The notes below the pieces were generated by a model. The model saw only the letters and a list, made by a program, of their open reading frames with translations, was not told where the DNA came from and made no database searches. From Vectrevirus T145P2, in sequence record OZ035802.1: a stretch of 44,662 nt of DNA, one strand, 5' to 3'. Below are positions 5,515 to 44,662 of the stretch, piece after piece. How positions within the stretch are numbered: the stretch's first letter is position 1; each line of letters begins with the position of its first letter. The position numbers and the translations under genes were made by a program.

Positions 5515-7950
5515 ATGATTCAAAGACTAGGTTCTTCATTAGTTAAATTCAAGAGTAAAATAGCAGGTGCAATCTGGCGTAACTTGGATGACAAGCTCAC
5601 CGAGGTTGTATCGCTTAAAGATTTTGGAGCCAAAGGTGATGGTAAGACAAACGACCAAGATGCAGTAAATGCAGCGATGGCTTCAGGTAAGAGAATTGAC
5701 GGTGCTGGTGCTACTTACAAAGTATCATCTTTACCTGATATGGAGCGATTCTATAACACCCGCTTCGTATGGGAACGTTTAGCAGGTCAACCTCTTTACT
5801 ATGTGAGTAAAGGTTTTATCAATGGTGAACTCTATAAAATCACGGATAACCCTTATTACAATGCTTGGCCTCAAGACAAAGCGTTTGTATATGAGAATGT
5901 GATATATGCACCCTACATGGGTAGCGACCGTCATGGCGTTAGTCGTCTGCATGTATCATGGGTTAAGTCTGGTGACGATGGTCAAACATGGTCTACTCCA
6001 GAGTGGCTAACTGATCTGCATCCAGATTACCCTACAGTGAACTATCATTGTATGAGTATGGGTGTATGTCGCAACCGTCTGTTTGCCATGATTGAAACAC
6101 GTACTTTAGCCAAGAACGCACTAACCAATTGTGCATTGTGGGATCGCCCTATGTCTCGTAGTCTGCATCTTACTGGTGGTATCACTAAGGCTGCAAATCA
6201 GAGATATGCAACAATCCATGTACCTGATCACGGACTATTCGTGGGCGATTTTGTTAACTTCTCTAATTCTGCGGTAACAGGTGTATCAGGTGATATGACT
6301 GTTGCAACGGTAATAGATAAGGACAACTTCACGGTTCTTACACCTAACCAGCAGACTTCAGATTTGAATAACGCTGGAAAGAGTTGGCACATGGGTACTT
6401 CTTTCCATAAGTCTCCATGGCGTAAGACAGATCTTGGTCTAATCCCTAGTGTCACAGAGGTGCATAGCTTTGCTACTATTGATAACAATGGCTTTGTTAT
6501 GGGCTATCATCAAGGTGATGTAGCTCCACGAGAAGTTGGTCTTTTCTACTTCCCTGATGCTTTCAATAGCCCATCTAATTATGTTCGTCGTCAGATACCA
6601 GCTGAGTATGAACCAGATGCGGCAGAGCCATGCATCAAGTACTATGACGGTGTATTATACCTTATCACTCGTGGTACTCGTGGCGACCGACTAGGAAGCT
6701 CTTTGCATCGTAGTAGAGATATAGGTCAGACTTGGGAGTCACTGAGATTTCCACATAATGTTCATCATACTACCTTACCTTTTGCTAAAGTAGGAGATGA
6801 CCTTATTATGTTTGGTTCAGAACGTGCAGAAAATGAATGGGAAGCAGGTGCACCAGATGATCGTTACAAGGCATCTTATCCTCGTACCTTCTATGCACGA
6901 TTGAATGTAAACAATTGGAATGCAGATGATATTGAATGGGTTAACATCACAGACCAAATCTATCAAGGTGACATTGTGAACTCTAGTGTAGGTGTAGGTT
7001 CTGTTGTAGTTAAAGACAGCTACATTTACTATATCTTTGGTGGTGAAAACCATTTCAACCCAATGACTTATGGTGACAACAAAGATAAAGACCCATTTAA
7101 AGGTCATGGACACCCTACTGATATATACTGCTATAAGATGCAGATTGCAAATGACAATCGTGTATCTCGTAAGTTTACATATGGTGCAACTCCTGGTCAG
7201 GCTATACCTACTTTCATGGGTACTGATGGAATACGAAATATCCCTGCACCTTTGTATTTCTCAGATAACATTGTTACAGAGGATACTAAAGTTGGACACT
7301 TAACACTTAAAGCAAGCACAAGTTCCAATATACGATCTGAAGTGCAGATGGAAGGTGAATATGGCTTTATTGGCAAGTCTGTTCCAAAGGACAACCCAAC
7401 TGGTCAACGTTTGATTATTTGTGGTGGAGAAGAGACTTCGTCATCTTCAGGTGCACAGATAACTTTGCACGGCTCTAATTCAAGTAATGCTAAGCGTATC
7501 ACTTATAACGGAAATGAGCACCTATTCCAAGGTGCACCAATCATGCCTGCTGTAGATAACCAGTTTGCTGCTGGTGGACCTAGTAACCGATTCACTACCA
7601 TCTACCTAGGTAGTGACCCTGTTACAACTTCAGATGCTGACCACAAGTACGGTATCTCTGGTATTAATACCAAGGTGTTAAAGGCTTGGAGCAGGGTTGG
7701 TTTTAAACAGTATGGTTTGAATAGTGAAGCAGAGAGGAATCTTGATAGCATACACTTCGGTGTCTTGGCTCAGGATATTGTAGCTGCTTTTGAAGCTGAA
7801 GGATTGGATGCCATTAAGTATGGAATTGTGTCCTTCGAAGAAGGTAGGTACGGTGTGAGATATAGTGAAGTTCTAATCCTAGAGGCTGCCTACACTCGCC
7901 ATCGTCTTGATAAATTAGAGGAGATGTATGCCGCTAATAAAATCAGTTAA
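5515..7950 (+). CDS. tailspike 2, endosialidase-like with C-terminal intramolecular chaperone domain
   Basis: 811 aa; two sialidase Asp-boxes (SGDDGQTW, SRDIGQTW); last ~105 aa resemble the autocleaving chaperone domain of endosialidases with SDADHK Ser-Lys motif; N-terminal SLKDFGAKGDG. Confidence 0.8.
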   Translation: MIQRLGSSLVKFKSKIAGAIWRNLDDKLTEVVSLKDFGAKGDGKTNDQDAVNAAMASGKRIDGAGATYKVSSLPDMERFYNTRFVWERLAGQPLYYVSKGFINGELYKITDNPYYNAWPQDKAFVYENVIYAPYMGSDRHGVSRLHVSWVKSGDDGQTWSTPEWLTDLHPDYPTVNYHCMSMGVCRNRLFAMIETRTLAKNALTNCALWDRPMSRSLHLTGGITKAANQRYATIHVPDHGLFVGDFVNFSNSAVTGVSGDMTVATVIDKDNFTVLTPNQQTSDLNNAGKSWHMGTSFHKSPWRKTDLGLIPSVTEVHSFATIDNNGFVMGYHQGDVAPREVGLFYFPDAFNSPSNYVRRQIPAEYEPDAAEPCIKYYDGVLYLITRGTRGDRLGSSLHRSRDIGQTWESLRFPHNVHHTTLPFAKVGDDLIMFGSERAENEWEAGAPDDRYKASYPRTFYARLNVNNWNADDIEWVNITDQIYQGDIVNSSVGVGSVVVKDSYIYYIFGGENHFNPMTYGDNKDKDPFKGHGHPTDIYCYKMQIANDNRVSRKFTYGATPGQAIPTFMGTDGIRNIPAPLYFSDNIVTEDTKVGHLTLKASTSSNIRSEVQMEGEYGFIGKSVPKDNPTGQRLIICGGEETSSSSGAQITLHGSNSSNAKRITYNGNEHLFQGAPIMPAVDNQFAAGGPSNRFTTIYLGSDPVTTSDADHKYGISGINTKVLKAWSRVGFKQYGLNSEAERNLDSIHFGVLAQDIVAAFEAEGLDAIKYGIVSFEEGRYGVRYSEVLILEAAYTRHRLDKLEEMYAANKIS

Positions 7951-8077
7951 GCAAGCTGCTGTACGCCAGAACGCAGAAGAACTTATTCAATCAGGACGTG
8001 ACCCTAAGCAGGCATACGCCATTGCCAAGGATGTACAACGTCGTGCCTTGAAGAAACCTTCTGCATCTTCTGCTTAA
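7928..8077 (+). CDS. hypothetical small basic ORF (49 aa) at right end
   Basis: ATG overlapping tailspike 3' end in another frame; no clear RBS. Confidence 0.2.
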   Translation: MPLIKSVKQAAVRQNAEELIQSGRDPKQAYAIAKDVQRRALKKPSASSA

Positions 8078-8283
8078 GCAGGTTAATATCTTAGTGTACA
8101 CAAGGGCAGACCTAGGTTTGCTCTTAGTGCCATCAAAGGAGGGTGTAGGTATGTTATCTTTGTTGTGTATACTCAGTGATGTCCTAGGTCGTAAGAGGTA
8201 CATTCTTAGTGAAGACCAAATAAGGGACGAGAAGATACGGAGGTCGCTCACAAAGTAACCAAAGTCAAAATTTTGATATAGGC

Positions 8284-8520
8284 GTGTGTGAGGTGTCTCG
8301 CCCTCGCCCTCGCCGGATTTCCCCCATATGGGGCCGCGCTGCGGTTGGCTTGGGAATTGGGCTGGGCTGGTCCGTCTTCGACGGGTGGCCTAGGGCTTGC
8401 CGAGGTCTGCTCTTAGTGGCTGCACAAGGAGAACGCCTAGGAAGCGCTAGGGCACGCCTTAGTATTGGACAAGGTGATTGCCTTAGTGCAACCGCTTAGG
8501 GCTTACACAGGCCGTTTTAG
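8284..8520. other. GC-rich island with CTCGCC x3 and CCCCCATATGGGG palindrome (terminal-repeat candidate)
   Basis: GC content visibly above genome background; T7 carries a similar CCCCCATAGGGGG near its left end as I recall. Confidence 0.4.
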
Positions 8521-8967
8521 GGCCATTCCTGAGCATTTGACAGGGTGAGCGTGGGTGGGCTATCTGTTCGTTTCGCTCCACTACGTTACGCTACACTCAC
8601 CGCGCTTGTGTATCCTTGGTATAATCCTGATGGATGGCTTAGGTTAGCCTTAGTGGGATACCTTAGTTAAAGCCTTAGTGCTTAGCTTAGTATCAACTTA
8701 GTAGTGTACCTTAGTAAGTCTTAGTGTCTTCTCTTAGTGATTGCATAGCTAAAGCTATAAGATGCAATTAGGTCGCGGTCGGTAGACCGCTAATAAGAAG
8801 TAATAGTAATAAGATGCAGTAGGAGGAACACCAGAAACCTAGCCAACCTAGTCTATCCTAGCTCTGTATCTATTGCTTTCCTTAGTCTCACATGTTAGAC
8901 AACCTAGGTTTACCTTAGCAGTTGTGACAGGTATCACATAAATAATCTATCTTAGTGCGATTTAGTG

Positions 8968-8996
8968 TTGACGTAGGCAGTTAACAGGTATACATT
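8968..8996 (+). promoter_or_regulatory. candidate host sigma70 early promoter
   Basis: TTGACG - 17 bp - TACATT. Confidence 0.4.
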
Positions 8997-9219
8997 AGCA
9001 ATCAGTCGGGAGCGACATTAAACACTCAGGGTGAATGATAGAGAGCGTCCTTAACTATCCGGCCTAGCTACTGAAGCCGTTAAACAATGTTAGATAGTGG
9101 AAGATGGCGCAAGCATAACCTACCACGATAAACCAAGGTTAGCGCAATGCTCTTTAACAATTTGCTTAGTGTAACCTGTGTATGCCGTGGTTAATTACTT
9201 ATTGAATGAGGAATTAACT

Positions 9220-9336
9220 ATGAATTATGAAGAAATGTATGAAGTCTATTTCGACTCATTAGATGAAGGAGAAGAAGCATTAACCTTCGCTGAGTTTATG
9301 GAGGCTTTATGGAGTTTCTATCATGACTCTAAATAA
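9220..9336 (+). CDS. hypothetical small acidic early protein (38 aa)
   Basis: ATG after GAGGAA; MNYEEMYEVYFDSLDEGEE... Confidence 0.35.
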   Translation: MNYEEMYEVYFDSLDEGEEALTFAEFMEALWSFYHDSK

Positions 9337-9502
9337 CCGTGAACTGTCCGTTCTCTTCACTCTGTTGTGCTACATGATTCGTAACAACGAATTACTTACG
9401 GAGGATGAGTTAGCCTTGTATCACCGATTCCTTAACGAAGGTTGGACCGATACAGTTAATCAATACCGTAACATGATAGATGAATTGAGGGAGGGTAAAT
9501 AA
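9323..9502 (+). CDS. hypothetical early protein (59 aa)
   Basis: ORF with overlapping start; stop overlaps next start. Confidence 0.4.
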   Translation: MTLNNRELSVLFTLLCYMIRNNELLTEDELALYHRFLNEGWTDTVNQYRNMIDELREGK

Positions 9503-9726
9503 TGTATCAACATGAGGTATTTTTTGAATCATCTAGCGAAGCTATTCGCTTCCACGATGATATGCTACAAGCTGGCGTAGGTGTTGATGTACATCACTTC
9601 CTACTAGATTACGACACTGAATATCACCGAGTTACCTTAGTATCTGAGTATGACAACCAAGTCATTACTGAGTATCTAGGTAGTGAAGATTATGATTACG
9701 ATGAAGTAATCACGACAAATCTCTAA
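9502..9726 (+). CDS. hypothetical acidic early protein (74 aa)
   Basis: AGGGAGGG RBS; D/E-rich with DYDYDE tail. Confidence 0.5.
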   Translation: MYQHEVFFESSSEAIRFHDDMLQAGVGVDVHHFLLDYDTEYHRVTLVSEYDNQVITEYLGSEDYDYDEVITTNL

Positions 9727-9734
9727 ATTAACTA

Positions 9735-9763
9735 TTGACAACCACGGCATACAAGGTTACATT
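9735..9763 (+). promoter_or_regulatory. candidate host sigma70 early promoter
   Basis: TTGACA - 17 bp - TACATT, same architecture as 8968. Confidence 0.4.
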
Positions 9764-10010
9764 AAGCATCAAGACGGCGACGTCTTTAAACATCACGCTC
9801 TTTAACAATAGAGATTAGGCCGGGAGTATCGGTGTGAGGGATAAGGAGGCTTTCCCACAATTAAACTGGTGGCAAAAGGATTGCCCAGCTTTATAGCCCA
9901 GTTATGGATAGCAATAGCGTAAGGATGGCAGCACACCCGCGAGTCTAATCTCTAGCTCTTTAACAATCTGGTTTGTGTCTTGATAGGCTTACTAACAAAG
10001 GTGAACTATC

Positions 10011-11985: not shown

Positions 11986-14613
11986 ATGCAAGACCTACAC
12001 GCTATTCAACTTCAACTTGAAGAAGAAATGTTTAACGGCGGTATCCGTCGCTTTGAAGCGGACCAACAACGCCAGATTGCATCCGGTAATGAATCAGACA
12101 CGGCATGGAATCGCCGCTTATTGTCCGAACTAATCGCACCTATGGCGGAAGGTATTCAGGCTTACAAGGAAGAATACGAAGGCAAGAGAGGTCGTGCACC
12201 ACGTGCATTAGCTTTCATTAACTGCGTAGGAAACGAAGTGGCAGCATATATCACCATGAAAATCGTTATGGATATGCTGAATACAGACGTTACCTTACAA
12301 GCAATCGCTATGAATGTAGCGGACCGCATCGAAGACCAAGTACGTTTTAGCAAGCTGGAAGGTCACGCAGCTAAGTACTTTGAGAAAGTGAAGAAGTCAC
12401 TTAAGGCTAGCAAGACTAAATCTTATCGTCATGCGCACAACGTAGCGGTAGTAGCTGAGAAATCTGTTGCTGACCGTGACGCGGATTTCTCCCGTTGGGA
12501 GGCATGGCCTAAAGACACCTTGCTGCAAATCGGTATGACCTTGCTCGAAATATTGGAGAATAGTGTATTCTTCAATGGTCAACCTGTCTTCCTTCGTACC
12601 TTGCGCACTAACGGCGGAAAGCATGGTGTTTACTATTTACAGACCAGTGAACATGTTGGAGAGTGGATAACTGCATTTAAGGAACATGTAGCGCAGCTCA
12701 GCCCTGCCTATGCACCTTGCGTTATACCTCCCCGCCCTTGGGTATCACCTTTTAACGGTGGGTTTCATACTGAGAAAGTAGCAAGCCGTATTCGTCTGGT
12801 AAAAGGCAATCGTGAGCACGTCCGCAAGCTGACCAAAAAGCAAATGCCAGCCGTTTATAAGGCTGTTAACGCTTTGCAGGCAACTAAGTGGCAGGTTAAT
12901 AAAGAGGTTTTACAGGTTGTGGAGGACGTTATACGTCTAGACCTCGGCTATGGTGTGCCTTCCTTTAAACCACTCATCGACCGTGAGAACAAGCCAGCTA
13001 ATCCAGTGCCGTTAGAGTTCCAGCACCTGCGAGGCCGTGAACTTAAAGAGATGCTAACGCCGGAACAATGGCAAGCCTTCATCAACTGGAAAGGCGAATG
13101 TACCAAGCTGTATACCGCTGAAACTAAGCGCGGCAGCAAATCGGCGGCGACCGTCCGCATGGTTGGGCAGGCACGTAAATACAGCCAGTTTGACGCCATC
13201 TACTTCGTGTATGCACTGGACAGCCGCAGCCGCGTCTACGCGCAATCTAGCACGCTCTCTCCGCAATCAAACGACTTAGGCAAGGCATTGCTCCGTTTTA
13301 CCGAAGGGCAGCGCCTTGATAGCGCTGAGGCGCTTAAATGGTTTTTGGTGAACGGGGCTAATAACTGGGGTTGGGATAAGAAGACTTTTGACGTGCGCAC
13401 CGCTAACGTGCTGGATAGTGAATTTCAAGACATGTGCCGCGACATTGCAGCGGATCCGCTTACCTTCACTCAATGGGTGAATGCCGAATCCCCTTACGGC
13501 TTCCTTGCTTGGTGCTTTGAATATGCGCGTTATCTGGATGCACTGGATGAAGGCACGCAAGACCAATTCATGACGCACCTCCCCGTCCATCAAGATGGTA
13601 GTTGTTCTGGTATCCAGCACTACAGTGCTATGCTACGCGATGCAGTAGGTGCGAAAGCGGTAAACCTTAAGCCCTCTGACTCCCCTCAAGATATTTATGG
13701 TGCCGTTGCGCAGGTAGTAATTCAGAAGAATTATGCATACATGAATGCAGAGGATGCGGAAACCTTCACTTCTGGCAGCGTGACTTTAACAGGTGCGGAA
13801 CTGCGTAGCATGGCTAGTGCGTGGGATATGATAGGAATCACTCGCGGCCTGACCAAAAAGCCCGTAATGACACTACCTTACGGCAGCACACGTCTAACCT
13901 GCCGTGAGTCAGTGATTGATTATATCGTTGATTTGGAAGAAAAAGAGGCCCAACGGGCTATTGCGGAAGGGCGTACCGCCAATCCTGTACATCCTTTTGA
14001 TAATGACCGCAAAGACAGCCTGACACCTAGCGCAGCTTATAACTATATGACAGCTTTAATCTGGCCTTCTATTTCGGAAGTGGTTAAAGCTCCTATAGTG
14101 GCAATGAAAATGATTCGTCAGCTTGCACGTTTCGCAGCTAAAAGAAACGAAGGCTTAGAATATCCCTTACCAACTGGCTTCATCTTGCAACAAAAGATAA
14201 TGGCTACCGATATGCTCCGCGTATCCACTTGCTTGATGGGTGAAATCAAGATGAGTCTCCAGATTGAAACAGATGTAGTTGATGAAACGGCAATGATGGG
14301 TGCGGCTGCTCCTAACTTCGTCCATGGTCACGATGCTAGCCACCTGATTCTGACTGTATGTGACCTGGTGGATAAAGGTATTACATCCATTGCAGTCATC
14401 CATGATTCTTTCGGTACTCATGCAGGACGTACCGCAGACCTGCGGGATAGCTTAAGGGAAGAAATGGTTAAGATGTATCAAAACCATAATGCCCTGCAAA
14501 ACCTGCTAGATGTGCACGAAGAGCGTTGGTTAGTAGACACCGGAATCCAAGTACCAGAGCAAGGAGAGTTTGACCTTAACGAAATCTTAGTTTCAGACTA
14601 TTGTTTCGCATAA
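11986..14613 (+). CDS. single-subunit DNA-dependent RNA polymerase (SP6-type)
   Basis: 875 aa; N-terminus [32 protein letters not shown] nearly matches SP6 RNAP as I recall it; conserved [14 protein letters not shown] and HDSFGTH motifs. Confidence 0.97.
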
Positions 14614-34073: not shown

Positions 34074-36475
34074 TGGAAGTACAAGGTTCATTAGATAGAC
34101 AAATCCAAGGGATTAGCCAGCAGCCGCCAGCGGTACGCTTGGATGGTCAGTGCACAGCTATGGTTAATATGATACCTGATGTAGTGAATGGTACTCAATC
34201 ACGCATGGGTACAACTCATATTGCAAAGATACTTGATGCGGGGACTGATGACATGGCTACTCATCATTATCGCAGAGGTGATGGTGATGAAGAGTATTTC
34301 TTCACGTTGAAGAAAGGACAAGTTCCTGAGATATTTGATAAGTATGGGCGCAAATGTAATGTGACTTCACAAGATGCACCTATGACCTACCTCTCTGAGG
34401 TTGTTAATCCAAGGGAAGATGTGCAATTCATGACGATAGCTGATGTTACTTTCATGCTTAATCGTAGGAAAGTAGTTAAAGCTAGTAACAGGAAGTCACC
34501 TAAAGTTGGAAACAAAGCCATTGTGTTTTGTGCGTATGGTCAATATGGTACATCTTATTCCATTGTAATTAATGGGACCAACGCTGCTAGTTTTAAAACA
34601 CCGGATGGTGGAAGTGCAGACCATGTTGAACAAATTCGAACTGAACGTATCACTTCTGAATTGTACGCTAAGTTGCAGCAATGGAGCGGTGTGAGTGACT
34701 ATGAAATACAAAGAGACGGTACTAGTATATTTATCGAGAGACGGGATGGTGCTAGCTTTACAATAACAACCACCGATGGTGCAAAAGGTAAGGACTTAGT
34801 GGCTATCAAGAATAAAGTTAGCTCTACTGACCTACTCCCTTCTCGTGCGCCTGCTGGTTATAAAGTACAAGTGTGGCCTACTGGCAGCAAACCTGAGTCT
34901 CGTTACTGGCTGCAAGCTGAGCCTAAAGAGGGAAACCTTGTGTCTTGGAAAGAAACAATAGCTGCTGATGTATTACTTGGGTTTGATAAAGGCACAATGC
35001 CTTACATTATTGAACGTACAGGTATCATCGACGGCATAGCTCAATTCAAGATAAGACAAGGTGATTGGGAAGATCGTAAAGTAGGGGATGACTTGACTAA
35101 CCCTATGCCTTCTTTTATTGATGAGGAAGTACCCCAGACAATAGGTGGAATGTTCATGGTGCAGAACCGCCTATGCTTTACAGCAGGTGAAGCGGTTATT
35201 GCTTCTCGTACATCATACTTCTTCGATTTCTTTCGTTATACGGTTATCTCTGCATTGGCAACTGACCCATTTGATATTTTCTCAGATGCTAGTGAAGTCT
35301 ACCAGCTAAAACATGCAGTGACCTTAGATGGCGCTACCGTGTTGTTCTCTGATAAGTCACAATTCATACTGCCAGGCGATAAGCCTTTAGAGAAGTCAAA
35401 TGCACTGCTTAAGCCTGTTACAACATTTGAAGTGAACAATAAGGTGAAGCCAGTAGTAACTGGTGAATCGGTAATGTTTGCCACTAATGATGGTTCTTAC
35501 TCTGGTGTACGAGAGTTCTATACAGACTCTTATAGTGACACTAAGAAGGCACAAGCAATCACAAGTCATGTGAATAAGCTTATCGAAGGTAACATTATCA
35601 ACATGGCAGCAAGTACCAATGTCAACCGATTGCTTGTCACTACCGATAAATATCGTAACATAATTTACTGCTATGATTGGTTATGGCAAGGTACAGACCG
35701 TGTACAATCAGCATGGCATGTATGGGAGTGGCCTATGGGTACAAAGGTGCGAGGTATGTTTTATTCTGGTGAATTACTTTATCTACTCCTTGAGCGAGGC
35801 GATGGCGTCTATCTGGAGAAGATGGACATGGGTGATGCACTAACCTATGGTTTGAATGACCGCATCAGAATGGATAGGCAAGCAGAGTTGATCTTCAAGC
35901 ATTTTAAAGCAGAAGATGAATGGATATCTGAACCACTTCCTTGGACTCCTACTAACCCAGAACTTTTGGATTGCATCTTAATAGAAGGGTGGGATTCATA
36001 TATTGGAGGTTCTTTCCTGTTTAAATATAACCCTAGTGATAACACCTTGTCTACAACCTTTGACATGCATGATGATAACCACGTAAAAGCGAAGGTTATT
36101 GTTGGTCAGATTTACCCTCAAGAGTTTGAACCAACACCTGTAGTTATCAGAGATAGGCAAGACCGTGTATCCTATATTGATGTACCTGTTGTGGGGTTGG
36201 TTCACCTTAATCTTGATATGTATCCTGATTTCTCCGTGGAAGTTAAGAATGTGAAGAGTGGTAAAGTACGCAGGGTGCTAGCGTCAAACCGTATAGGTGG
36301 TGCTCTCAACAACACAGTAGGTTATGTTGAACCAAGGGAGGGTGTCTTCAGATTCCCACTGAGGGCTAAGAGCACGGATGCTGTTTATCGTATTATTGTA
36401 GAATCACCTCATACATTCCAGCTTCGCGATATTGAGTGGGAAGGGAGCTACAATCCAACCAAAAGGAGGGTCTAA
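34073..36475 (+). CDS. tail tubular protein B
   Basis: ~800 aa; TAATG overlap; size and position as T7 gp12. Confidence 0.85.
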   Translation: MEVQGSLDRQIQGISQQPPAVRLDGQCTAMVNMIPDVVNGTQSRMGTTHIAKILDAGTDDMATHHYRRGDGDEEYFFTLKKGQVPEIFDKYGRKCNVTSQDAPMTYLSEVVNPREDVQFMTIADVTFMLNRRKVVKASNRKSPKVGNKAIVFCAYGQYGTSYSIVINGTNAASFKTPDGGSADHVEQIRTERITSELYAKLQQWSGVSDYEIQRDGTSIFIERRDGASFTITTTDGAKGKDLVAIKNKVSSTDLLPSRAPAGYKVQVWPTGSKPESRYWLQAEPKEGNLVSWKETIAADVLLGFDKGTMPYIIERTGIIDGIAQFKIRQGDWEDRKVGDDLTNPMPSFIDEEVPQTIGGMFMVQNRLCFTAGEAVIASRTSYFFDFFRYTVISALATDPFDIFSDASEVYQLKHAVTLDGATVLFSDKSQFILPGDKPLEKSNALLKPVTTFEVNNKVKPVVTGESVMFATNDGSYSGVREFYTDSYSDTKKAQAITSHVNKLIEGNIINMAASTNVNRLLVTTDKYRNIIYCYDWLWQGTDRVQSAWHVWEWPMGTKVRGMFYSGELLYLLLERGDGVYLEKMDMGDALTYGLNDRIRMDRQAELIFKHFKAEDEWISEPLPWTPTNPELLDCILIEGWDSYIGGSFLFKYNPSDNTLSTTFDMHDDNHVKAKVIVGQIYPQEFEPTPVVIRDRQDRVSYIDVPVVGLVHLNLDMYPDFSVEVKNVKSGKVRRVLASNRIGGALNNTVGYVEPREGVFRFPLRAKSTDAVYRIIVESPHTFQLRDIEWEGSYNPTKRRV

Positions 36476-37221
36476 TGGCTATAGGTTCAGCCGTTATGGC
36501 TGGTATGTCTTCTATTGGTAGTATGTTTGCAGGTAGCGGTGCAGCAGCCGCTGCTGGTGGTACTGCCGCAGCAGCAGGAGGGACAGCCGCCGCAGGTGGC
36601 GGAGGTTTGCTTGGCTCCCTTGGTAGTTTCTTAGGAGGTTCTTCTGCTGGCTTCTCTAATGCAGGACTGCTTAGTGCAGGTATGCAAGGTCTTGGTCTTC
36701 TAGGCAATCTTTTTGGTGGAAGTGATGAAGCCAAAGCTATGAAGAAAGCTCAGGAGGAGCAATGGCGGCAGCAGTTAATTGCTACACAAGAAGCATATAA
36801 GACAGTGGCAGATGCAGAACGCTCTGCTGCTAAACAGTATCATGCGGATGCAATAAGCAATCAGGCTTCACTACTGCAGCAGAGAGCACAGGTTGCATTG
36901 CTTGCTGGTGCTACTGGTACTGGTGGTAACTCTGTGTCTTCTATGCTGAATGACTTAGCAGCAGAAGGCGGAAGGAACCAGAGTACAATTATCGATAACT
37001 ATGAGAATCAGAAGATTAACTTCACAAACCAGCTTAAGTCCATCCAACGTGGTGGTCAGATGCAGATGCGTGAGTTTAAGAAACCTTCTGCCGTGAGCAC
37101 CTTGGTGCAAGGTATACCGAGTCTGGCATCTGCCTATGTAACAGGTAGTAAGTCCGGCATGGCTTTAGGTAAAGCTTTAACTGATTCTCGTACATATTCA
37201 TCTGGAACAAGAGGTATTTAA
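36475..37221 (+). CDS. internal virion protein (gp14-like)
   Basis: Gly/Ala-rich hydrophobic N-terminal region; TAATG overlap. Confidence 0.6.
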   Translation: MAIGSAVMAGMSSIGSMFAGSGAAAAAGGTAAAAGGTAAAGGGGLLGSLGSFLGGSSAGFSNAGLLSAGMQGLGLLGNLFGGSDEAKAMKKAQEEQWRQQLIATQEAYKTVADAERSAAKQYHADAISNQASLLQQRAQVALLAGATGTGGNSVSSMLNDLAAEGGRNQSTIIDNYENQKINFTNQLKSIQRGGQMQMREFKKPSAVSTLVQGIPSLASAYVTGSKSGMALGKALTDSRTYSSGTRGI

Positions 37222-40169
37222 TGGCAATTGAGCGACAAGCAGTACAAGGTCTGCCACAAGTGCAGGCCACTTCTCCTAATGTCATGACCTTTGCACCTCA
37301 GCGAGTTGGAGGTGTGGAGGCTGGCGTAGCTTCTACCTCCGGTAGTCGATTTATCGAAGACCTTATTCGAGCAGCCAGTAGTGTAGCTGATGTAACCACT
37401 GGTATCCTTAATCAAAAGATTGAGGAAGATAAGGTTGTTCAAATGGAACGGGCATATAACGGATTAATGCCTTCTGAGGATGCAACTCGTGGTGGCGCTC
37501 GTGCTAACATGCTTGTCAAAGCTCAACTGCTAGCTAATGATGAAGCAGCACGAATGAAAGACATGGCTACTCGTTTCCAAGGAACGGATGACGAGTGGAC
37601 ACAGCTTATGGTTGACTCTCGTAATGAGATGCAGAATAAGCTGTTCCAGCAATACCCTGAGTTGCAAGGTGACAAAGATACTATGCGTATGGTCACTAAT
37701 GTCTTCCAAGAACAGCAGCCTCAGATTTGGGCTACACGAACCCAGCATAAACTTGACCGTGAACAAGCAGACCGTGAGGATACCTTTGACGGGCGAGTGG
37801 CTTCTACTTGGGATTCTAATATTGACCCTGAAGCCTCTGGATATGCTTTACAGGAACGAATCCGCGAAGGTCTTACTCAAGGATTACTACCTGAACAGAT
37901 GCACAAGAAGTTAGTCCAGCGAGCAATTTCACTTGCACAAGGCGGTGATGTTAGCATGGCTGAAGCCCTGAAGTATGTGAAGGACGATAAGGGTGTTTCT
38001 GTTTATGCTAAGAATCCACAGCTTATCACAGCCATCACTAGTGGTAATGCAGTTTGGGCTAGGAATAATGTAGCTGATGTAACTCGTATGTCTTTCGAAG
38101 TTAAAGAATCATACCTTGCAGGCGATTTAACTGATGAAGAATTGTTGGAACGAGCACAGCACATTAATAATCTGACAGGTAACTCTGTCTTCTCTAACCC
38201 AGAACTAGAGGCACTGATGCGCCAACGAGCTAAGCAGAATGCAGGGCTAGGTGCAATGCAGGATATGCGCCGTGAGCTTTACTCCGACCGCCTGACTGGC
38301 TTCCAAGGTAAGACTGATAAAGAGAAGAAGGCTTACATTGATGTTATCAAACAAGATAGCCAACTTTATGCAGACCAGCAAATCAAACAACGTGGCTTGG
38401 ACCCTTACAGTCAAGAGGCTGAAGCTATTCGTGGTGCAGTGGAAGTGCAGCGCCTACAATTCATGAACTCCAAAGGCTTAGTGGATGATACCTTTGAGTC
38501 TCGTATCAAAGCCATGGAATCTATGCTATCGCCTGAGCACTTTGCCAAGGGCGAACCACAAGAGTTGATGACTATTCGCCAGTTGTGGGAACAGTTGCCA
38601 GAAGAGAGCCGAGGTGTCTTTGGTGACACGGTGAATGGCTACATGGATAACTACAACACTGCACTACAAATGGGAGAGACACCTTTGCAGGCTGCAAGGT
38701 TTGCGCGTGAAGCACAGCAGAAATTCTCTCGTACTGAGAAGGAAACCAAGAAGTTCAACTCAGCTATTGGAGAGGCACTGGATGAGGTGTCTGGTGCTGG
38801 CTGGTTTGATGGTAAAACCGAAGTGTCAGACTTAGGTAAAGCTATTGCGGAAGAAGAGTTACGAGCTAAGGCCAATATGTTGTGGTCTAGTGGTATGCGT
38901 AACATGGATTCCATCAAGAAGGCTTTAATTACTTGGGGCAATAAACGCTACACTCAATCAGAGGATGCAAAGACTTCCGGTGGCTATTTCATTAAAGGTG
39001 ATTACACTTCTGCATCTGATATGCTTATGTCAGTTGGGAAAGGCGTAAACCCTACCGATGTACCTCTGGCGCTTGGTAGGTATGTAGAAACACAGATGCC
39101 AGAATTGAAGAAGGAGCTTCAAGAGTGGGAAACTAAAGATGATATATACATTGATTACAATGAACAGAAAGGAACTTTTGTGATTCGTGCTGGTGCAGCA
39201 GGTCGCCCTCTTTCTGGAGTAATCCCTGTAACCTCTTTAGATACTACTTCACTACTAGATTCTGCCTATCAGAAGAAAGTAGAGGAACGAGATAAAGGCG
39301 AGTATGTTCACCCGTATCGTACAGATATTGGTGCACAAGAGCCTATGCCAGCTAAACCAACTGCCAAAGATATTGGTAAATTTGGACTAGCTAACTTCCT
39401 CATGTCTTCTGCTTTTGCTTCTGGTGAGAATCTGCCTTCTAACTTCGAGATTAACTATCGAGGTAATATGCAACAATTCTATGACAAGCTAGCTATGGAT
39501 GAGAATAAAGATAAAGTTGGCTTTAATAAGGCAACTGGAACCTTTACTCCATATAAAGACGCTCACGGTGAGTCTATCGGTTACGGTCATTTCTTAACGG
39601 AAGAAGAGAAGCGAAACGGGTATATTAAGATTGGCGATGAACTAGTTCCCTATCGAGGGTCTATGTCTCAGCTTACAGAGAGCAAGGCTCGCGCCCTTAT
39701 GGAGCAAGATGCTAAGAAGCATGTGCCTCCTACTCGTGACTGGAAGATTCCGTTTGACCAGATGCATCCTGCACAGCAACGTGGCTTGATGGATTTAACC
39801 TACAATTTAGGTAAAGGTGGAATCCAGAACTCACCGCGTGCTCTTGCTGCATTCAAAGCTGGTAAGCTTACGGAGGGTTTTATCGAAATGCTGGGCACTG
39901 CATCAAGTGAAGGTAAGCGTATTCCTGGCCTACTGAAGCGACGCGCTGAGGCATACAATATGGCATCTGCTGGTGGTGTGCCTAAGATTACCGAAGTGGA
40001 GACTCGTGAAGATGGCTCCATGTGGGTTAGGTTTGGTGGACCTATGCCAGCAGGTTCTGTCTCGGCATGGACTCATAAACGTATTGGCGCGGATGGTTGG
40101 TATCAGGTTTATGAGGCTGCACCTACAAAGTTAGCTAAAGGTTCTAAGGTAGGTAAAGTTAAGTTGTAG
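37221..40169 (+). CDS. internal virion protein with C-terminal T4-lysozyme-like peptidoglycan hydrolase domain
   Basis: 982 aa; C-terminal region (~39520..39970) KDAHGESIGYGHFLTEEE...LMDLTYNLGKGG resembles a GH24 phage lysozyme. Confidence 0.75.
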   Translation: MAIERQAVQGLPQVQATSPNVMTFAPQRVGGVEAGVASTSGSRFIEDLIRAASSVADVTTGILNQKIEEDKVVQMERAYNGLMPSEDATRGGARANMLVKAQLLANDEAARMKDMATRFQGTDDEWTQLMVDSRNEMQNKLFQQYPELQGDKDTMRMVTNVFQEQQPQIWATRTQHKLDREQADREDTFDGRVASTWDSNIDPEASGYALQERIREGLTQGLLPEQMHKKLVQRAISLAQGGDVSMAEALKYVKDDKGVSVYAKNPQLITAITSGNAVWARNNVADVTRMSFEVKESYLAGDLTDEELLERAQHINNLTGNSVFSNPELEALMRQRAKQNAGLGAMQDMRRELYSDRLTGFQGKTDKEKKAYIDVIKQDSQLYADQQIKQRGLDPYSQEAEAIRGAVEVQRLQFMNSKGLVDDTFESRIKAMESMLSPEHFAKGEPQELMTIRQLWEQLPEESRGVFGDTVNGYMDNYNTALQMGETPLQAARFAREAQQKFSRTEKETKKFNSAIGEALDEVSGAGWFDGKTEVSDLGKAIAEEELRAKANMLWSSGMRNMDSIKKALITWGNKRYTQSEDAKTSGGYFIKGDYTSASDMLMSVGKGVNPTDVPLALGRYVETQMPELKKELQEWETKDDIYIDYNEQKGTFVIRAGAAGRPLSGVIPVTSLDTTSLLDSAYQKKVEERDKGEYVHPYRTDIGAQEPMPAKPTAKDIGKFGLANFLMSSAFASGENLPSNFEINYRGNMQQFYDKLAMDENKDKVGFNKATGTFTPYKDAHGESIGYGHFLTEEEKRNGYIKIGDELVPYRGSMSQLTESKARALMEQDAKKHVPPTRDWKIPFDQMHPAQQRGLMDLTYNLGKGGIQNSPRALAAFKAGKLTEGFIEMLGTASSEGKRIPGLLKRRAEAYNMASAGGVPKITEVETREDGSMWVRFGGPMPAGSVSAWTHKRIGADGWYQVYEAAPTKLAKGSKVGKVKL

Positions 40170-40233: not shown

Positions 40234-43200
40234 ATGGAACAAGACATTAAGACGAATTGGGCTGGATATGTCCAGTCTACTCCTGAGCCGTTTTCTATTG
40301 AGGCGGCTCCGGTATCGGCTCCTACGATACGCCAGCGTAATGAGTTACAAGAGCAAGTTCTTGAAGCTAAAGCTGACGCTGATATTTTAGGTGCTGTAGG
40401 TGCTGCCTTCCAGAATGAGTGGTTGGCATTCGGAGGCAAGCGGTGGTATGACCGTGCCACTGCTGATTTCACACCTCAACCAGACTTTGAGATACAACCT
40501 GAGCAACGTGAAGCACTACGTTTCAAATATGGTACGGATATGATGCAGACAATCACTGAGGGTGTTCGTTCTGAGGATGAATTGAACTTCCGTATTCAGA
40601 ATGCTGATGAAGACCTTGAGCGCAATAAGCGCATTGCTCAGGCTGGCTGGGTTGGCTCTGTGGCGACGATTGGCGCTGCTGTGCTTGACCCTGTGGGATG
40701 GGTTGCCTCTATTCCAACCGGTGGTGCCGCTAAAGTTGGGCTCGTAGGCCGTGCTGTGCGTGGCGCTATCGCCGCTGGCGTGAGTAATGCCGCTATTGAA
40801 TCCGTATTGGTCCAAGGTGACATGACTCGTGATTTGGATGACATTATGGTAGCACTAGGTTCCGGTATGGCGATGGGTGGCGTTATTGGCGCTGTAGCGC
40901 GTGGTAGGGCCACTAAGCTCAGTGAGCAAGGGGATGACAGGGCTGCGAGCATTGTGCGCAGTGCAGACGCAGGGGACCGCTATGTGCGTGCTGTTGCTGA
41001 TGATAGTATCGGTGCGATGCGTGTTAAGGGTGAAGAGGTACTCACGGAGGGTGCATTTGATGTCTCTAGCAAAGGTGAAGATTTGCTGAAAACCCTACAG
41101 CGGGAAGGTAATGCAATTGATATGACCCCTCGCCGCTGGGCCGGAACTCTGTCTGCCCTTGGTACTGTCGTACATTCCTCTCAGGATGCAAGTGTACGCG
41201 GCCTTGGTGCTCGCCTGTTTGAGTCCCCCCAAGGCTTAGGTATGCAGAAGGCATCTGCTAGTCTCATGCAGAATACTAACTTGAACCGTCTGAAATCTGC
41301 TGATATGAACCGTTTCAATGACGGGTTTGACTTATGGCTCAAAGAAAATAATATCAATCCAGTTGCAGGTCATACTAACTCTCACTATGTGCAGCAATAT
41401 AATGAGAAGGTATGGGAAGCTGTACGCATCGGTATGGATGAGTCTACGCCTAAGTCTATCCGTATGGCAGCAGAGGGGCAGCAAGCTATGTATCGTGAAG
41501 CATTAGCATTACGTCAACGCTCTGGTGAAGCTGGGTTTGAAAAGGTTAAAGCAGATGATAAGTACATGCCTGATATTTTTGACAGTATGAAGGCTCGTCG
41601 TCAATTCAGTATGCACGATAAAGAGGACATCATTGAGTTATTCTCTCGTGCATACCAGAATGGTTCTCGTAAGGTTCCAAAGGAAGTGGCTGATGATATT
41701 GCACGAGCACAAGTAAACCGCGTTGCTGATGCCACCTTGACCGGACAGCTTAGCTTTGAAAAGGCTATGTCTGGTCAAACCAAAGCAGAATATGAAGCAC
41801 TCATGCGCAAAGCAGGCTTTAGTGATGAAGAGATTGAAAAGATGGTAGAAGCTCTGGATAATAAAGAAACCAGAGATAATATCTCTAACCGAGCTAAGAT
41901 GAGTTTAGGCTTAGATGTTACTCAAGAGTACAATGGTATTCGTATGCGTGACTTTATGAACACTAACGTGGAAGAGTTAACAGATAACTACATGAAGGAA
42001 GCGGCAGGTGGTGCTGCCTTGGCTCGTCAAGGTTTCTCTACCTATCAGGCTGCACTTAATGCAATTGATCTTGTAGAGCGAAATGCACGAAATGCAGCTA
42101 AAGATACAAAAGCACACGCACAATTTGAAGCGGAGTCGGCTAAGATCCGTCAATCAGAGCCTGATTACAAGAAGGCACAAGAGAAGATTGAAGAGTTAAA
42201 GAAGCGACTTAAATTGAAAGAGAAAGATGAAGCAGCAGGTCTGGCTATTGATGAAGAAATCCGTCAGATGCGAGAGGGGCTTCGCTTGATTATGGGTAAA
42301 TCTATCGATTCAAACCCACAAGATTTGTCTACTAAAATGCTGCGTCGTGGGCGTGACATTACAGGCGTACTTCGCTTAGGTCAGATGGGCTTCGCACAGC
42401 TAGGTGAACTTGCTAACTTCATGGGTGAGTTTGGTATTGCTGCCACCACTATGGCTTTAGGTAAGCAATTCCGCTTCACCTCTAAGGCGTTGCGTAATGG
42501 CGATGGCTTCTTTCGAGATAAGAATTTAGCTGAGGTTGAGCGAATGGTAGGTTACATTGGTGAAGACAACTGGCTAACAACTAAGGGTGCGCGTCCAGAT
42601 GAGTTTGGTGATGTAACCACAGTGCGAGGTATGATGGCCCATTTTGACCAGTCCATGAACTCTATACGACGTGCTCAGACAAACCTATCCCTCTTCCGCA
42701 TGGCACAGGGTTCTCTGGAGCGAATGACCAATAGGCAAATAGCTTTGTCTTTCATTGACCACCTTGAAGGCAAGAAGATTATTCCTCAGAAGAAACTGGA
42801 GGAACTTGGTCTTACTCAGGAGTTCATGACTAACCTACAGAAGCACTATGATGCTAACTCTAAAGGTTCTGGCTTGCTTGGCTTTGATACAATGCCTTAT
42901 GCCATGGGTGAAACTTTAGCTAATGCTATTCGTCGTAAGTCAGGTCTAATTATCCAACGTAACTTCATTGGTGATGAAGGTATCTGGATGAACAAAGCAC
43001 TAGGTAAGACATTTGCACAGCTTAAGTCGTTCTCTCTTGTATCTGGTGAGAAGCAATTTGGTCGAGGGATTCGCCACGATAAAATTGGTCTTGCTAAGAA
43101 GACAGCTTACGGTTTTGCTTTGGGTTCAATAGTGTATGCGGCAAAAGCCTATGTGAACTCTATTGGTCGAGAAGACCAAGATGAATATTTGGAAGAGAAG

Positions 43201-43542
43201 TTATCGCCTAAAGGGTTGGCCTTTGGTGCAATGGGTATGATGAGTACAACTGCTGTATTTAGTCTAGGTGGAGATTTCTTAGGTGGCCTAGGTGTTCTAC
43301 CTTCTGAGTTAGTACAATCCCGTTATGAGGCTGGCTTTCAGACTAAGGGGTTGATAGACCAAATACCACTAGTAGGTGTTGGTCAAGATGCATATCGTTT
43401 AGCAGATTCTATAACTAGATACGCAGAGGGTGATACAGAAGGTGTAGATGTGGCACGTAGGGCTTTACGCTTAGTGCCTCTAGCTAATGTAATAGGAATC
43501 CAGAACGCATTGCGTTATGGCTTAGATGAACTGGAGGATTAA
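40234..43542 (+). CDS. large internal virion protein (gp16-like ejectosome component)
   Basis: 1102 aa; GGAGG RBS; largely helical; last of three internal virion genes. Confidence 0.75.
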   Translation: MEQDIKTNWAGYVQSTPEPFSIEAAPVSAPTIRQRNELQEQVLEAKADADILGAVGAAFQNEWLAFGGKRWYDRATADFTPQPDFEIQPEQREALRFKYGTDMMQTITEGVRSEDELNFRIQNADEDLERNKRIAQAGWVGSVATIGAAVLDPVGWVASIPTGGAAKVGLVGRAVRGAIAAGVSNAAIESVLVQGDMTRDLDDIMVALGSGMAMGGVIGAVARGRATKLSEQGDDRAASIVRSADAGDRYVRAVADDSIGAMRVKGEEVLTEGAFDVSSKGEDLLKTLQREGNAIDMTPRRWAGTLSALGTVVHSSQDASVRGLGARLFESPQGLGMQKASASLMQNTNLNRLKSADMNRFNDGFDLWLKENNINPVAGHTNSHYVQQYNEKVWEAVRIGMDESTPKSIRMAAEGQQAMYREALALRQRSGEAGFEKVKADDKYMPDIFDSMKARRQFSMHDKEDIIELFSRAYQNGSRKVPKEVADDIARAQVNRVADATLTGQLSFEKAMSGQTKAEYEALMRKAGFSDEEIEKMVEALDNKETRDNISNRAKMSLGLDVTQEYNGIRMRDFMNTNVEELTDNYMKEAAGGAALARQGFSTYQAALNAIDLVERNARNAAKDTKAHAQFEAESAKIRQSEPDYKKAQEKIEELKKRLKLKEKDEAAGLAIDEEIRQMREGLRLIMGKSIDSNPQDLSTKMLRRGRDITGVLRLGQMGFAQLGELANFMGEFGIAATTMALGKQFRFTSKALRNGDGFFRDKNLAEVERMVGYIGEDNWLTTKGARPDEFGDVTTVRGMMAHFDQSMNSIRRAQTNLSLFRMAQGSLERMTNRQIALSFIDHLEGKKIIPQKKLEELGLTQEFMTNLQKHYDANSKGSGLLGFDTMPYAMGETLANAIRRKSGLIIQRNFIGDEGIWMNKALGKTFAQLKSFSLVSGEKQFGRGIRHDKIGLAKKTAYGFALGSIVYAAKAYVNSIGREDQDEYLEEKLSPKGLAFGAMGMMSTTAVFSLGGDFLGGLGVLPSELVQSRYEAGFQTKGLIDQIPLVGVGQDAYRLADSITRYAEGDTEGVDVARRALRLVPLANVIGIQNALRYGLDELED

Positions 43543-44513: not shown

Positions 44514-44662
44514 ATGATTAACTCCGAACTGGTAGATAGTGGTGTGAAGCTTGCGCCACCTGCACTCGTATCAGGTGGGTACTTCCTCGGTATCAGTTGG
44601 GATAATTGGGTGTTAATAGCAACATTCATTTATACCGTGTTGCAAATTGGGGACTGGTTTTA
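44514..44662 (+). CDS. T7-type class II holin (gp17.5-like), truncated by window end
   Basis: GGGGGTGGG RBS; MINSELVDSGVKLAPPALV then hydrophobic FLGISWDNWVLIATFIYTVLQI; joined to base 1 it ends at TAA 44..46 as a 65-aa protein. Confidence 0.65.
   Translation, partial: MINSELVDSGVKLAPPALVSGGYFLGISWDNWVLIATFIYTVLQIGDWF

Follow-up and report, generated by a model that had tools for sequence, protein, structure and literature searches.

The window analyzed here is the 44,662-nucleotide sequence record OZ035802.1 of Vectrevirus T145P2, read on one strand from 5' to 3', and its positions 8090-9170 hold a dense, one-stranded swarm of the hexamer CTTAGT. This swarm is the SP6-group counterpart of the short repeats beside the genome ends of phage T7 and represents a known kind of feature. 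Judged from the sequence, the region is very probably the concatemer junction of a K1E-like phage (SP6-group, Molineuxvirinae), with the ends at 8296 and 8562. We tentatively read the hexamers as oriented binding sites of a lineage-specific factor in concatemer processing or packaging, a role to which we give slightly less than even weight.

An exact search of 8083-9170 found 17 copies of CTTAGT on the + strand and none on the - strand (17:0), starting at 8090, 8123, 8205, 8412, 8458, 8482, 8649, 8662, 8674, 8686, 8697, 8710, 8720, 8733, 8881, 8951 and 9165. The remainder of the genome contains 16 copies on the + and 19 on the - strand; with the expectation derived from these copy numbers, 0.44 copies per strand would occur in 1,088 bp by chance, giving a Poisson P(>=17) of 1.4 × 10^-21. 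A preliminary description of this DNA, made from the letters alone, had counted at least 17 copies within ~1.1 kb and expected any 6-mer far less than once per kilobase, and both statements were borne out. Among the 6-mers of the region, CTTAGT was enriched most by a wide margin, and its overlapping extensions TTAGTG and CCTTAG came next; because of this region, the count for the whole window (52) exceeded that in shuffled sequences (29.4 +/- 5.6). The same description had given the word as mostly (C)CTTAGTG, which was right for the trailing G, present in 10 of the 17 copies, but not for the leading C, present in 7; the full CCTTAGTG occurs only three times. A wider family of words was also enriched, comprising CTTAGG, CCTAGG (five copies), CCTAGC/T (three) and YTAGGGC (four).

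With respect to the terminal repeat (TR), three copies lie upstream, three inside and eight in an array downstream, and the last three are scattered among early host promoters, the far limit of the swarm being ~870 bp from the left genome end. The features of the junction are as follows.

7928-8077, + strand: last conserved gene before the genome end, 49 amino acids, homologue of SP6 gp51 and K1-5 gp48 (open reading frame [ORF] list, phrog_2423)
8090-8128, + strand: pair of CTTAGTG 33 bp apart (8090 and 8123) in the right-end unique DNA, conserved in relatives
8248-8295, + strand: conserved block CACAAAGTAACCAAAGTCAAAATTTTGATATAGGCGTGTGT... directly left of the left-end cut (sequence matches in relatives)
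8296-8562, + strand: terminal repeat, one collapsed copy of 267 bp (homology to exact and annotated TRs, record start points)
8537-8568, + strand: TTGACA (8537-8542), 18 bp and TATCTGTT, with ATCTGTT at 8562-8568 (comparison with relatives)
8649-8738, + strand: array of eight CTTAGT, 37% G+C, starting at +87 from the TR
8740-8768 and 8775-8790, + strand: pair of conserved hairpins next to the right end of the array (DNA fold, alignment)
8838-8862, + strand: three CCTAGC/CCTAGT, 9-10 bp apart, variants of a CYTAG core, conserved in K1E, SP6 and mutPK1A2
8881-9170, + strand: dispersed CTTAGT at 8881, 8951 and 9165, among early host-type promoters
8924-8953 and 8968-8996: predicted early host-type promoters GTGACA-18-TATCTT and TTGACG-17-TACATT (clearest)

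The region is 98-99% identical to K1E-type phages (98% to K1E strain KY435490) and matches ~120 SP6-group (Molineuxvirinae) records; all genes of the window are on the + strand. A holin-like ORF spans the end and the start of the record (44514-44662 joined to 1-46) and is directly followed by the small terminase gene (30-329), which identifies the record as a circularized assembly, arbitrarily opened and with the TR collapsed. The window is thus a circularly permuted K1E-like Vectrevirus genome, and it holds a single copy of the TR because the assembly was closed into a circle.

We placed the TR by homology to seven records with defined ends. The virion genome very probably begins at 8296 and finishes at 8562, with the TR at both ends; as published left ends vary by up to 2 nt, the left end should be read as 8296 +/- 2. 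The TR contains 61% G+C against 37-49% in its flanks, and no second copy is present in the window. Base 1 of the reference K1E genome (NC_007637) is the equivalent of 8296 (TCTCGCCCTCGCC...), and the first 288 bp of that genome are repeated exactly at its right end; the same end-to-end calculation gave a TR of 234 bp for K1-5, 174 bp for SP6 and 160 bp for T7. Annotated TRs are 286 bp in mutPK1A2, 262 bp in phD2B and 277 bp in Era103, and a TR of 261 bp is reported for the raw contig of AAPEc6 (PMC5543629). The records of KAW1A4500 and fTuEco01 likewise have their first base at the position corresponding to 8296, where the left end reads TCTCGCC, and those of AAPEc6 and EC120 have theirs at the position corresponding to 8563. 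In K1E, K1-5, SP6 and mutPK1A2, the last TR base is the one matching 8562, where the right boundary reads ...GGGCTA. The homologous TR puts both ends inside the swarm and supports the earlier proposal that the swarm marks the probable genome termini, with the refinement that the ends, on this placement, sit in the middle of the swarm and not at its edges.

The preliminary description had staked its reading on the presence of the repeats in relatives, and K1E, K1-5, SP6, PM93, PP1 and K1-ULIP33 were all found to carry the layout. Counted upstream of the TR, within it and in the array, the window has 3/3/8 copies with the array starting at +87, K1E 2/3/8 from +108, K1-5 2/3/8 from +88, and SP6 2/1/7 from +86, the seven being five at 12-bp spacing, a 22-bp gap and then two. 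The ends of K1E, K1-5 (NC_008152) and SP6 (NC_004831) contain the same elements in the same order, differing in the length of the TR (267 bp here) and in the small ORF that occupies the slot before it. In the Proteus phage PM93 (14 copies), the Pectobacterium phage PP1 (9) and the Klebsiella phage K1-ULIP33 (8), CTTAGT is likewise the top 6-mer at the genome ends, and the dispersed copies are kept position by position over genera that are ~72-76% identical in the region.

The analogy with T7 drawn in the preliminary description also holds on the T7 sequence (NC_001604), in which CCTAAAG occurs on one strand with two copies upstream of the TR, three inside and eight downstream. These T7 repeats are reportedly the SRL and SRR of Dunn and Studier, 1983. 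In both systems a one-strand motif of 6-7 bp appears twice ahead of the TR, three times within it and as an array behind it, the CTTAGTG pair at 8090 and 8123 corresponding to the right-side repeats of T7 and the array at 8649-8738 to its left-side repeats; the two also share the genomic position, the type of packaging machinery and the running of repeat variants into the early promoter region. The motif itself differs, CTTAGT(G) here and CCTAAAG in T7, so that the window does not carry the T7 repeats by sequence. The spacing within the array is 10-13 bp here and 13 bp or its multiples of 25-26 bp in T7, the array starts 86-108 bp after the TR in Molineuxvirinae and 16 bp after it in T7, and the window has no phage promoter equivalent to phiOL or phiOR beside its arrays. 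The CTTAGT and CCTAAAG arrays are therefore positional and functional analogues, and possibly homologues with a drifted motif.

A further element shared with T7 coincides with the right end. T7 RNA polymerase has a strictly conserved class II pause/termination signal, ATCTGTT (bioRxiv 10.1101/2021.01.11.426313; bioRxiv 10.64898/2026.02.12.705533), with a role at the T7 concatemer junction (bioRxiv 10.1101/2021.01.11.426313; bioRxiv 10.64898/2026.02.12.705533; PMC3276506), where the polymerase-lysozyme complex, once paused, is believed to bring in gp18 and gp19 and so to start maturation (PMC3276506). The identical heptamer, preceded by T, lies on the right TR boundary in the window, in six of the eight other Molineuxvirinae examined (K1E, K1-5, SP6, mutPK1A2, PM93 and phD2B) and in T7; PP1, K1-ULIP33 and Era103 have variants differing by one or two bases at the TR edge. 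The TR ends on the first base of ATCT[GA]T[TC] (8562 here) in K1E, K1-5, SP6, mutPK1A2, phD2B and Era103, and on that base or one base earlier relative to the heptamer in T7. ATCTGTT occurs only twice on the + strand of the whole window, which equals the chance expectation, the other copy (12462-12468) being inside the RNA polymerase gene.

The window encodes matching machinery: a gp18-like small terminase (PF11123, E = 2.8 × 10^-16), a gp19-like large terminase (PF22530, E = 1.6 × 10^-35), a single-subunit RNA polymerase (gene at 11986-14613) 85% identical to that of SP6, and 13 phage promoters TACTGGACACTATAGAAG on the + strand. Given ATCTGTT at the TR edge together with the T7-type terminase domains, a T7-like pathway of end formation is the natural reading. 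By analogy with T7, the window's own K1E/SP6-type polymerase would pause at 8562-8568. TTGACA at 8537-8542 could also act as a weak host promoter. According to a 2026 review, how packaging starts and ends is less understood for T3/T7-like phages than for cos or headful systems (PMC13595956).

Within the array, successive copies of CTTAGT start 13, 12, 12, 11, 13, 10 and 13 bp apart, and the conserved unit measures 6-8 bp. Tandem Repeats Finder reported only the threefold CTCGCC and a 15-bp doublet, missing the array because its spacers differ in both sequence and length. We scanned IMG/VR for CTTAGT-N4-8-CTTAGT-N4-8-CTTAGT; the hits were mostly unrelated tandem repeats, and the eight SP6-like loci among the matches listed were used in the alignment. 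In the alignment of ten relatives, the mean pairwise identity was 0.92 for the hexamer columns and 0.62 for the spacer columns (P = 4 × 10^-10), indicating selection on the hexamer itself, on how it is oriented and on where it is placed. The copy number of the array varies from six to eight among the relatives, with irregular spacers.

An indication of how the hexamers are read comes from a natural change of the motif. The Lelliottia phage phD2B has CATGAT(G) as its repeated word, with ten copies in the same layout. It retains the left-end block, the palindrome within the TR, ATCTGTT at the TR edge, the hairpin region after the array and the palindrome further downstream, and it is a close relative of PP1, with 93, 90 and 85% identity in the large terminase, primase/helicase and portal. 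In a pairwise alignment with PP1, CATGAT and CTTAGT occupied the same columns (within one column) at three of the nine PP1 sites, covering the array and one dispersed position. The Erwinia phage Era103 uses yet other words, CCTTATGG and AGGCTA. CTTAGT is found in phages of E. coli, Salmonella, Proteus, Pectobacterium and Klebsiella, and CCTAAAG in T7, which infects E. coli. The motif tracks the phage lineage and not the host, since T7 and K1E share E. coli yet differ in motif, and SP6, PM93, PP1 and K1-ULIP33 differ in host yet share it. A coordinated change at many separate sites is expected if a trans-acting reader changed its specificity and is hard to fit with neutral slippage. The swap in phD2B thus points to a reader that would act in trans and be specific to the phage lineage.

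We propose that such a factor, specific to the phage lineage and not to the host, would read the hexamers in one orientation. With two sites before the TR, three within it and eight after it at roughly one per helical turn, the resulting protein array could mark the junction while the DNA is still concatemeric and could help to position or organize the terminase, along with the replication that duplicates the TR, with respect to both cut sites. The default candidate for the reader would be the small terminase. The lambda cosB R sites and the SPP1 pacL boxes similarly place several short oriented repeats beside a terminase cleavage site; the likeness would be one of function only, as lambda and SPP1 are cos or headful packagers whereas the phage studied here is very probably of the exact-terminal-repeat type and DNA binding by its gp18-like small terminase is putative. 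As a whole, a concatemer junction whose hexamers serve as sites for a reader is the explanation that we consider best, and we hold it with slightly better than even confidence.

A number of observations weigh against this proposal. To our knowledge, the T7 repeats have never been assigned a function, and a literature search, from which the original SP6, K1-5 and K1E papers were left out, found neither a description of the CTTAGT repeats nor a function for those of T7. Several copies lie in or beside the main early promoter and would suit a transcriptional role equally well, and the 10-13 bp spacing of the array is out of phase with the helix. We looked for the reader by tblastn of all ORFs against SP6, PM93, PP1, phD2B and Era103 and by counting lineage-private substitutions in the conserved proteins. 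The early accessory genes are not common to PP1 and the K1E/SP6 group and, not being shared among the CTTAGT phages, are unlikely to encode the reader; if a phage protein is the common reader, it would thus be expected among the core proteins. None of the 29 conserved proteins stood out as having a specificity-switch signature covarying with the motif. The small terminase (TerS) has four phD2B-private changes against seven PP1-private ones, showing no excess, and only three candidate positions, all mild, separate the CTTAGT phages from phD2B and Era103; its identity is 74% between PP1 and phD2B and 70% between PP1 and the window.

The copies near the promoters could instead reflect a role in early transcription or genome entry, the hexamers binding a factor or accessory contacts of the host RNA polymerase and modulating the early host-type promoters, for example by shutting them off once a phage protein has accumulated. 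These promoters are on the first ~900 bp entering the cell and the swarm finishes within that distance; a predicted -10 element is overlapped by the copy at 8951, SP6 and mutPK1A2 have CTTAGTG right beside the -35 element (CTTAGTGTTGACA), K1-5 and PM93 have a copy in the promoter spacer, and CTTAAAG overlaps the -35 element of A1 in T7. Most copies (the eight-copy array, those in the TR and the upstream pair) are nevertheless distant from promoters, some are on the right-end side that enters the cell last, and a scan for phage promoters found none within 7500-10000, leading us to consider such a role unlikely. The extent of the swarm over about the first 870 bp from the left end would also suit an anchor for the virion end, with hexamers on the last-packaged and first-ejected end bound by portal, tail or core proteins that set the position of the leading end, and the segment of T7 that enters the cell independently of transcription is similar in size. 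Copies are, however, also present before the TR, on the right-end unique DNA, the portal and internal proteins lack a switch signature in phD2B, and sequence-specific DNA contacts by portal, tail or core proteins have no precedent; we regard anchoring as very improbable.

The TR has to be duplicated, a step that is poorly understood (PMC3350473; PMC13595956), and the repeats could aid this step as priming, pausing or pairing sites that promote concatemer formation via the TR or the synthesis duplicating it. The bracketing of the TR by repeats on both sides in every genome examined agrees with such a role. It fits less well that PP1 and phD2B, despite their different motifs, have a primase/helicase and a DNA polymerase conserved at 83-90%, and that the region has neither repeats of iteron-like length nor an initiator gene. 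The motif also lacks the GCA triplet that we take to be the recognition site of the SP6 primase, and on balance a replication or recombination aid seems improbable. The irregular spacers, the varying copy number and the differences in motif among genera would be natural for a functionless satellite, created by slippage or unequal exchange near the recombinogenic ends and carried neutrally. Against this, the hexamers are far better conserved than the spacers, their orientation is absolute, the dispersed copies are conserved position by position across genera, and the switch in phD2B hit the dispersed sites as well as the array, which slippage cannot do. A neutral satellite is thus quite improbable.

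Extending the proposal of a trans-acting reader beyond the window, the hexamer arrays might form the binding matrix of a factor that organizes end formation in exact-terminal-repeat phages, with its specificity re-set at least twice inside Molineuxvirinae. We think this extension possible but doubtful. The re-sets, equally doubtful, would have been from CTTAGTG to CATGATG in Tuodvirus and to CCTTATGG/AGGCTA in Era103, with a further one separating the SP6 and T7 groups. On the same uncertain footing, neither the cut sites nor the CCCCATAGGG palindrome nor the polymerase pause signal would have changed through them. If the extension is true, the natural swap between the close relatives PP1 and phD2B would provide a direct handle on the role of the T7 terminal short repeats, a question that goes back to 1983.

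For annotation, the analysis locates the probable true ends of this assembly, which is circularly permuted (start at 8296, TR at 8296-8562) and explains a 1.1-kb "gene desert." The feature is not new in kind, the sequence having been public in SP6, K1-5 and K1E since 2004-2006; the finding is correct and useful for annotation, and the swapping of the motif between lineages is a lead of modest interest. The recognition and duplication of T7/SP6-type ends are still called poorly understood (PMC13595956, 2026 review), and oriented repeats under clear selection, together with one genus showing a wholesale swap of the motif, offer a testable cis element for concatemer processing. They are relevant to the design of packaging signals for SP6- or K1-type transducing particles and for engineered therapeutic phages.

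Other candidates for the repeats were rejected. An iteron-type replication origin would have 17-22 bp iterons, an initiator gene and an unwinding element; the unit here is 6-8 bp and no initiator gene is nearby. A simple head-to-tail tandem satellite is inconsistent with spacers varying in sequence and length and with the lack of an array call by Tandem Repeats Finder. Phage promoters are absent within 7500-10000, excluding clusters of them, and decoys of the promoter core CTATAG (from which CTTAG and CTAAAG are one edit away) were dismissed as phD2B keeps its ACTATAGAA promoters despite CATGATG. Separately, the repeat word of every lineage contains a stop codon on the coding strand, TAG in CTTAGT, TAA in CCTAAAG, TGA in CATGATG and TAG in GCTAGGCTA, and the TAGs of the CTTAGT array occupy all three frames; these stops may be a coincidence or a translational barrier across the junction.

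Left of the TR, the gene at 7928-8077 (phrog_2423 at E = 1.4 × 10^-22; 85% identity to SP6 at 43269) sets the left limit of the noncoding terminal region. The CTTAGTG pair is found, 33-34 bp apart, 133-225 bp before the TR in K1E, K1-5 and SP6. The third upstream CTTAGT (8205) is not conserved and falls within a small ORF of 35 amino acids (8151-8258), which lies in the right-end unique DNA behind a strong Shine-Dalgarno sequence (AAGGAGG) and matched nothing in Pfam and PHROG searches. In the relatives, the same slot with the same ribosome-binding site holds unrelated small ORFs (K1-5 gp49, SP6 gp52 and nine codons in K1E). With a conserved gene just upstream and a single small ORF of no known family, the preliminary description was essentially right in seeing no convincing ORFs in the region. 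The gene 48 annotated in K1E (NC_007637, 44868-45083) extends 120 bp into the TR; the window, K1-5 and SP6 all lack a counterpart, and it is probably not a real gene.

The block at 8248-8295 is the most widely conserved noncoding stretch, found in phages of Escherichia, Salmonella, Klebsiella, Proteus, Lelliottia and Citrobacter, and by this conservation is a candidate recognition sequence for the left-end cleavage. The contexts of the two cut sites are alike (8250-8300 and 8517-8570), reading TTTTGATATAGGCGTGTGTGAGGTG|TCTC and TTTGACAGGGTGAGCGTGGGTGGGCTA|TCTG, and a unit of ~27 bp is found twice, 167-193 bp before the left cut and 144-170 bp before the right one (8103-8129 and 8392-8418, 81% identical). 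Inside the TR are the threefold CTCGCC at its start, the palindrome CCCCATATGGGG at 8322-8333, the four YTAGGGC and the CTTAGT copies at 8412, 8458 and 8482. The palindrome CCCCATAGGG lies 25-32 nt from the left end in nine records that begin there, T7 included. In the form CCCCATA(T)GGGG (8322-8333 here and nt 27-37 in T7), it is kept across two subfamilies otherwise without nucleotide similarity at this place.

Directly right of the array, the hairpin region 8740-8790 has a predicted DNA fold of -12.8 kcal/mol (z = -4.0). The inner palindrome of the first hairpin has been preserved via multiple compensatory changes (AGCTAAAGCT versus CATGCAAGCATG), and the stem of the second, GCGGTC-GGTA-GACCGC, is invariant in 12 sequences. 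An Rfam search of the region matched no known RNA or origin family. A sigma-70 scan found five promoters against 4.9 expected, a background level, so that conservation is what the early promoter calls are based on. The first gene begins at 9220. The preliminary description had placed the swarm between the last late gene and the first early promoter, which is accurate on the left, but on the right the swarm runs beyond the first early promoters, the copies at 8951 and 9165 being at or past them.

Two short symmetric sequences accompany these promoters. A 16-bp near-perfect palindrome, GTCTCACATGTTAGAC (8885-8900), overlaps the CTTAGT at 8881 and looks like an operator for a dimeric protein; it occurs in 8 of the 10 Molineuxvirinae checked, among them phD2B with its different repeat motif, and is missing from mutPK1A2 and Era103. 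At 8923-8938, TGTGA-N6-TCACA overlaps the predicted promoter GTGACA-18-TATCTT and fits both half-sites of what we take to be the consensus of E. coli CRP. It is present in K1E, SP6 and mutPK1A2, nearly so in K1-ULIP33, and absent from K1-5, PM93, PP1 and phD2B.

The relatives showed some peculiarities of their own. Right after the conserved palindrome, the left-end noncoding region of PM93 has a phage-type promoter, AAAGACCACTATAGAAG (nt 362-399), which resembles T7 phiOL and has no equivalent at that place in the window. The large terminase gene of phD2B (36141-38783) is split by a homing-endonuclease gene, and Era103 carries seven tandem 27-bp repeats (ATAGGTAGGCCCAGGTTATCCAGGTCT) after its terminase gene, at 40269-40440.

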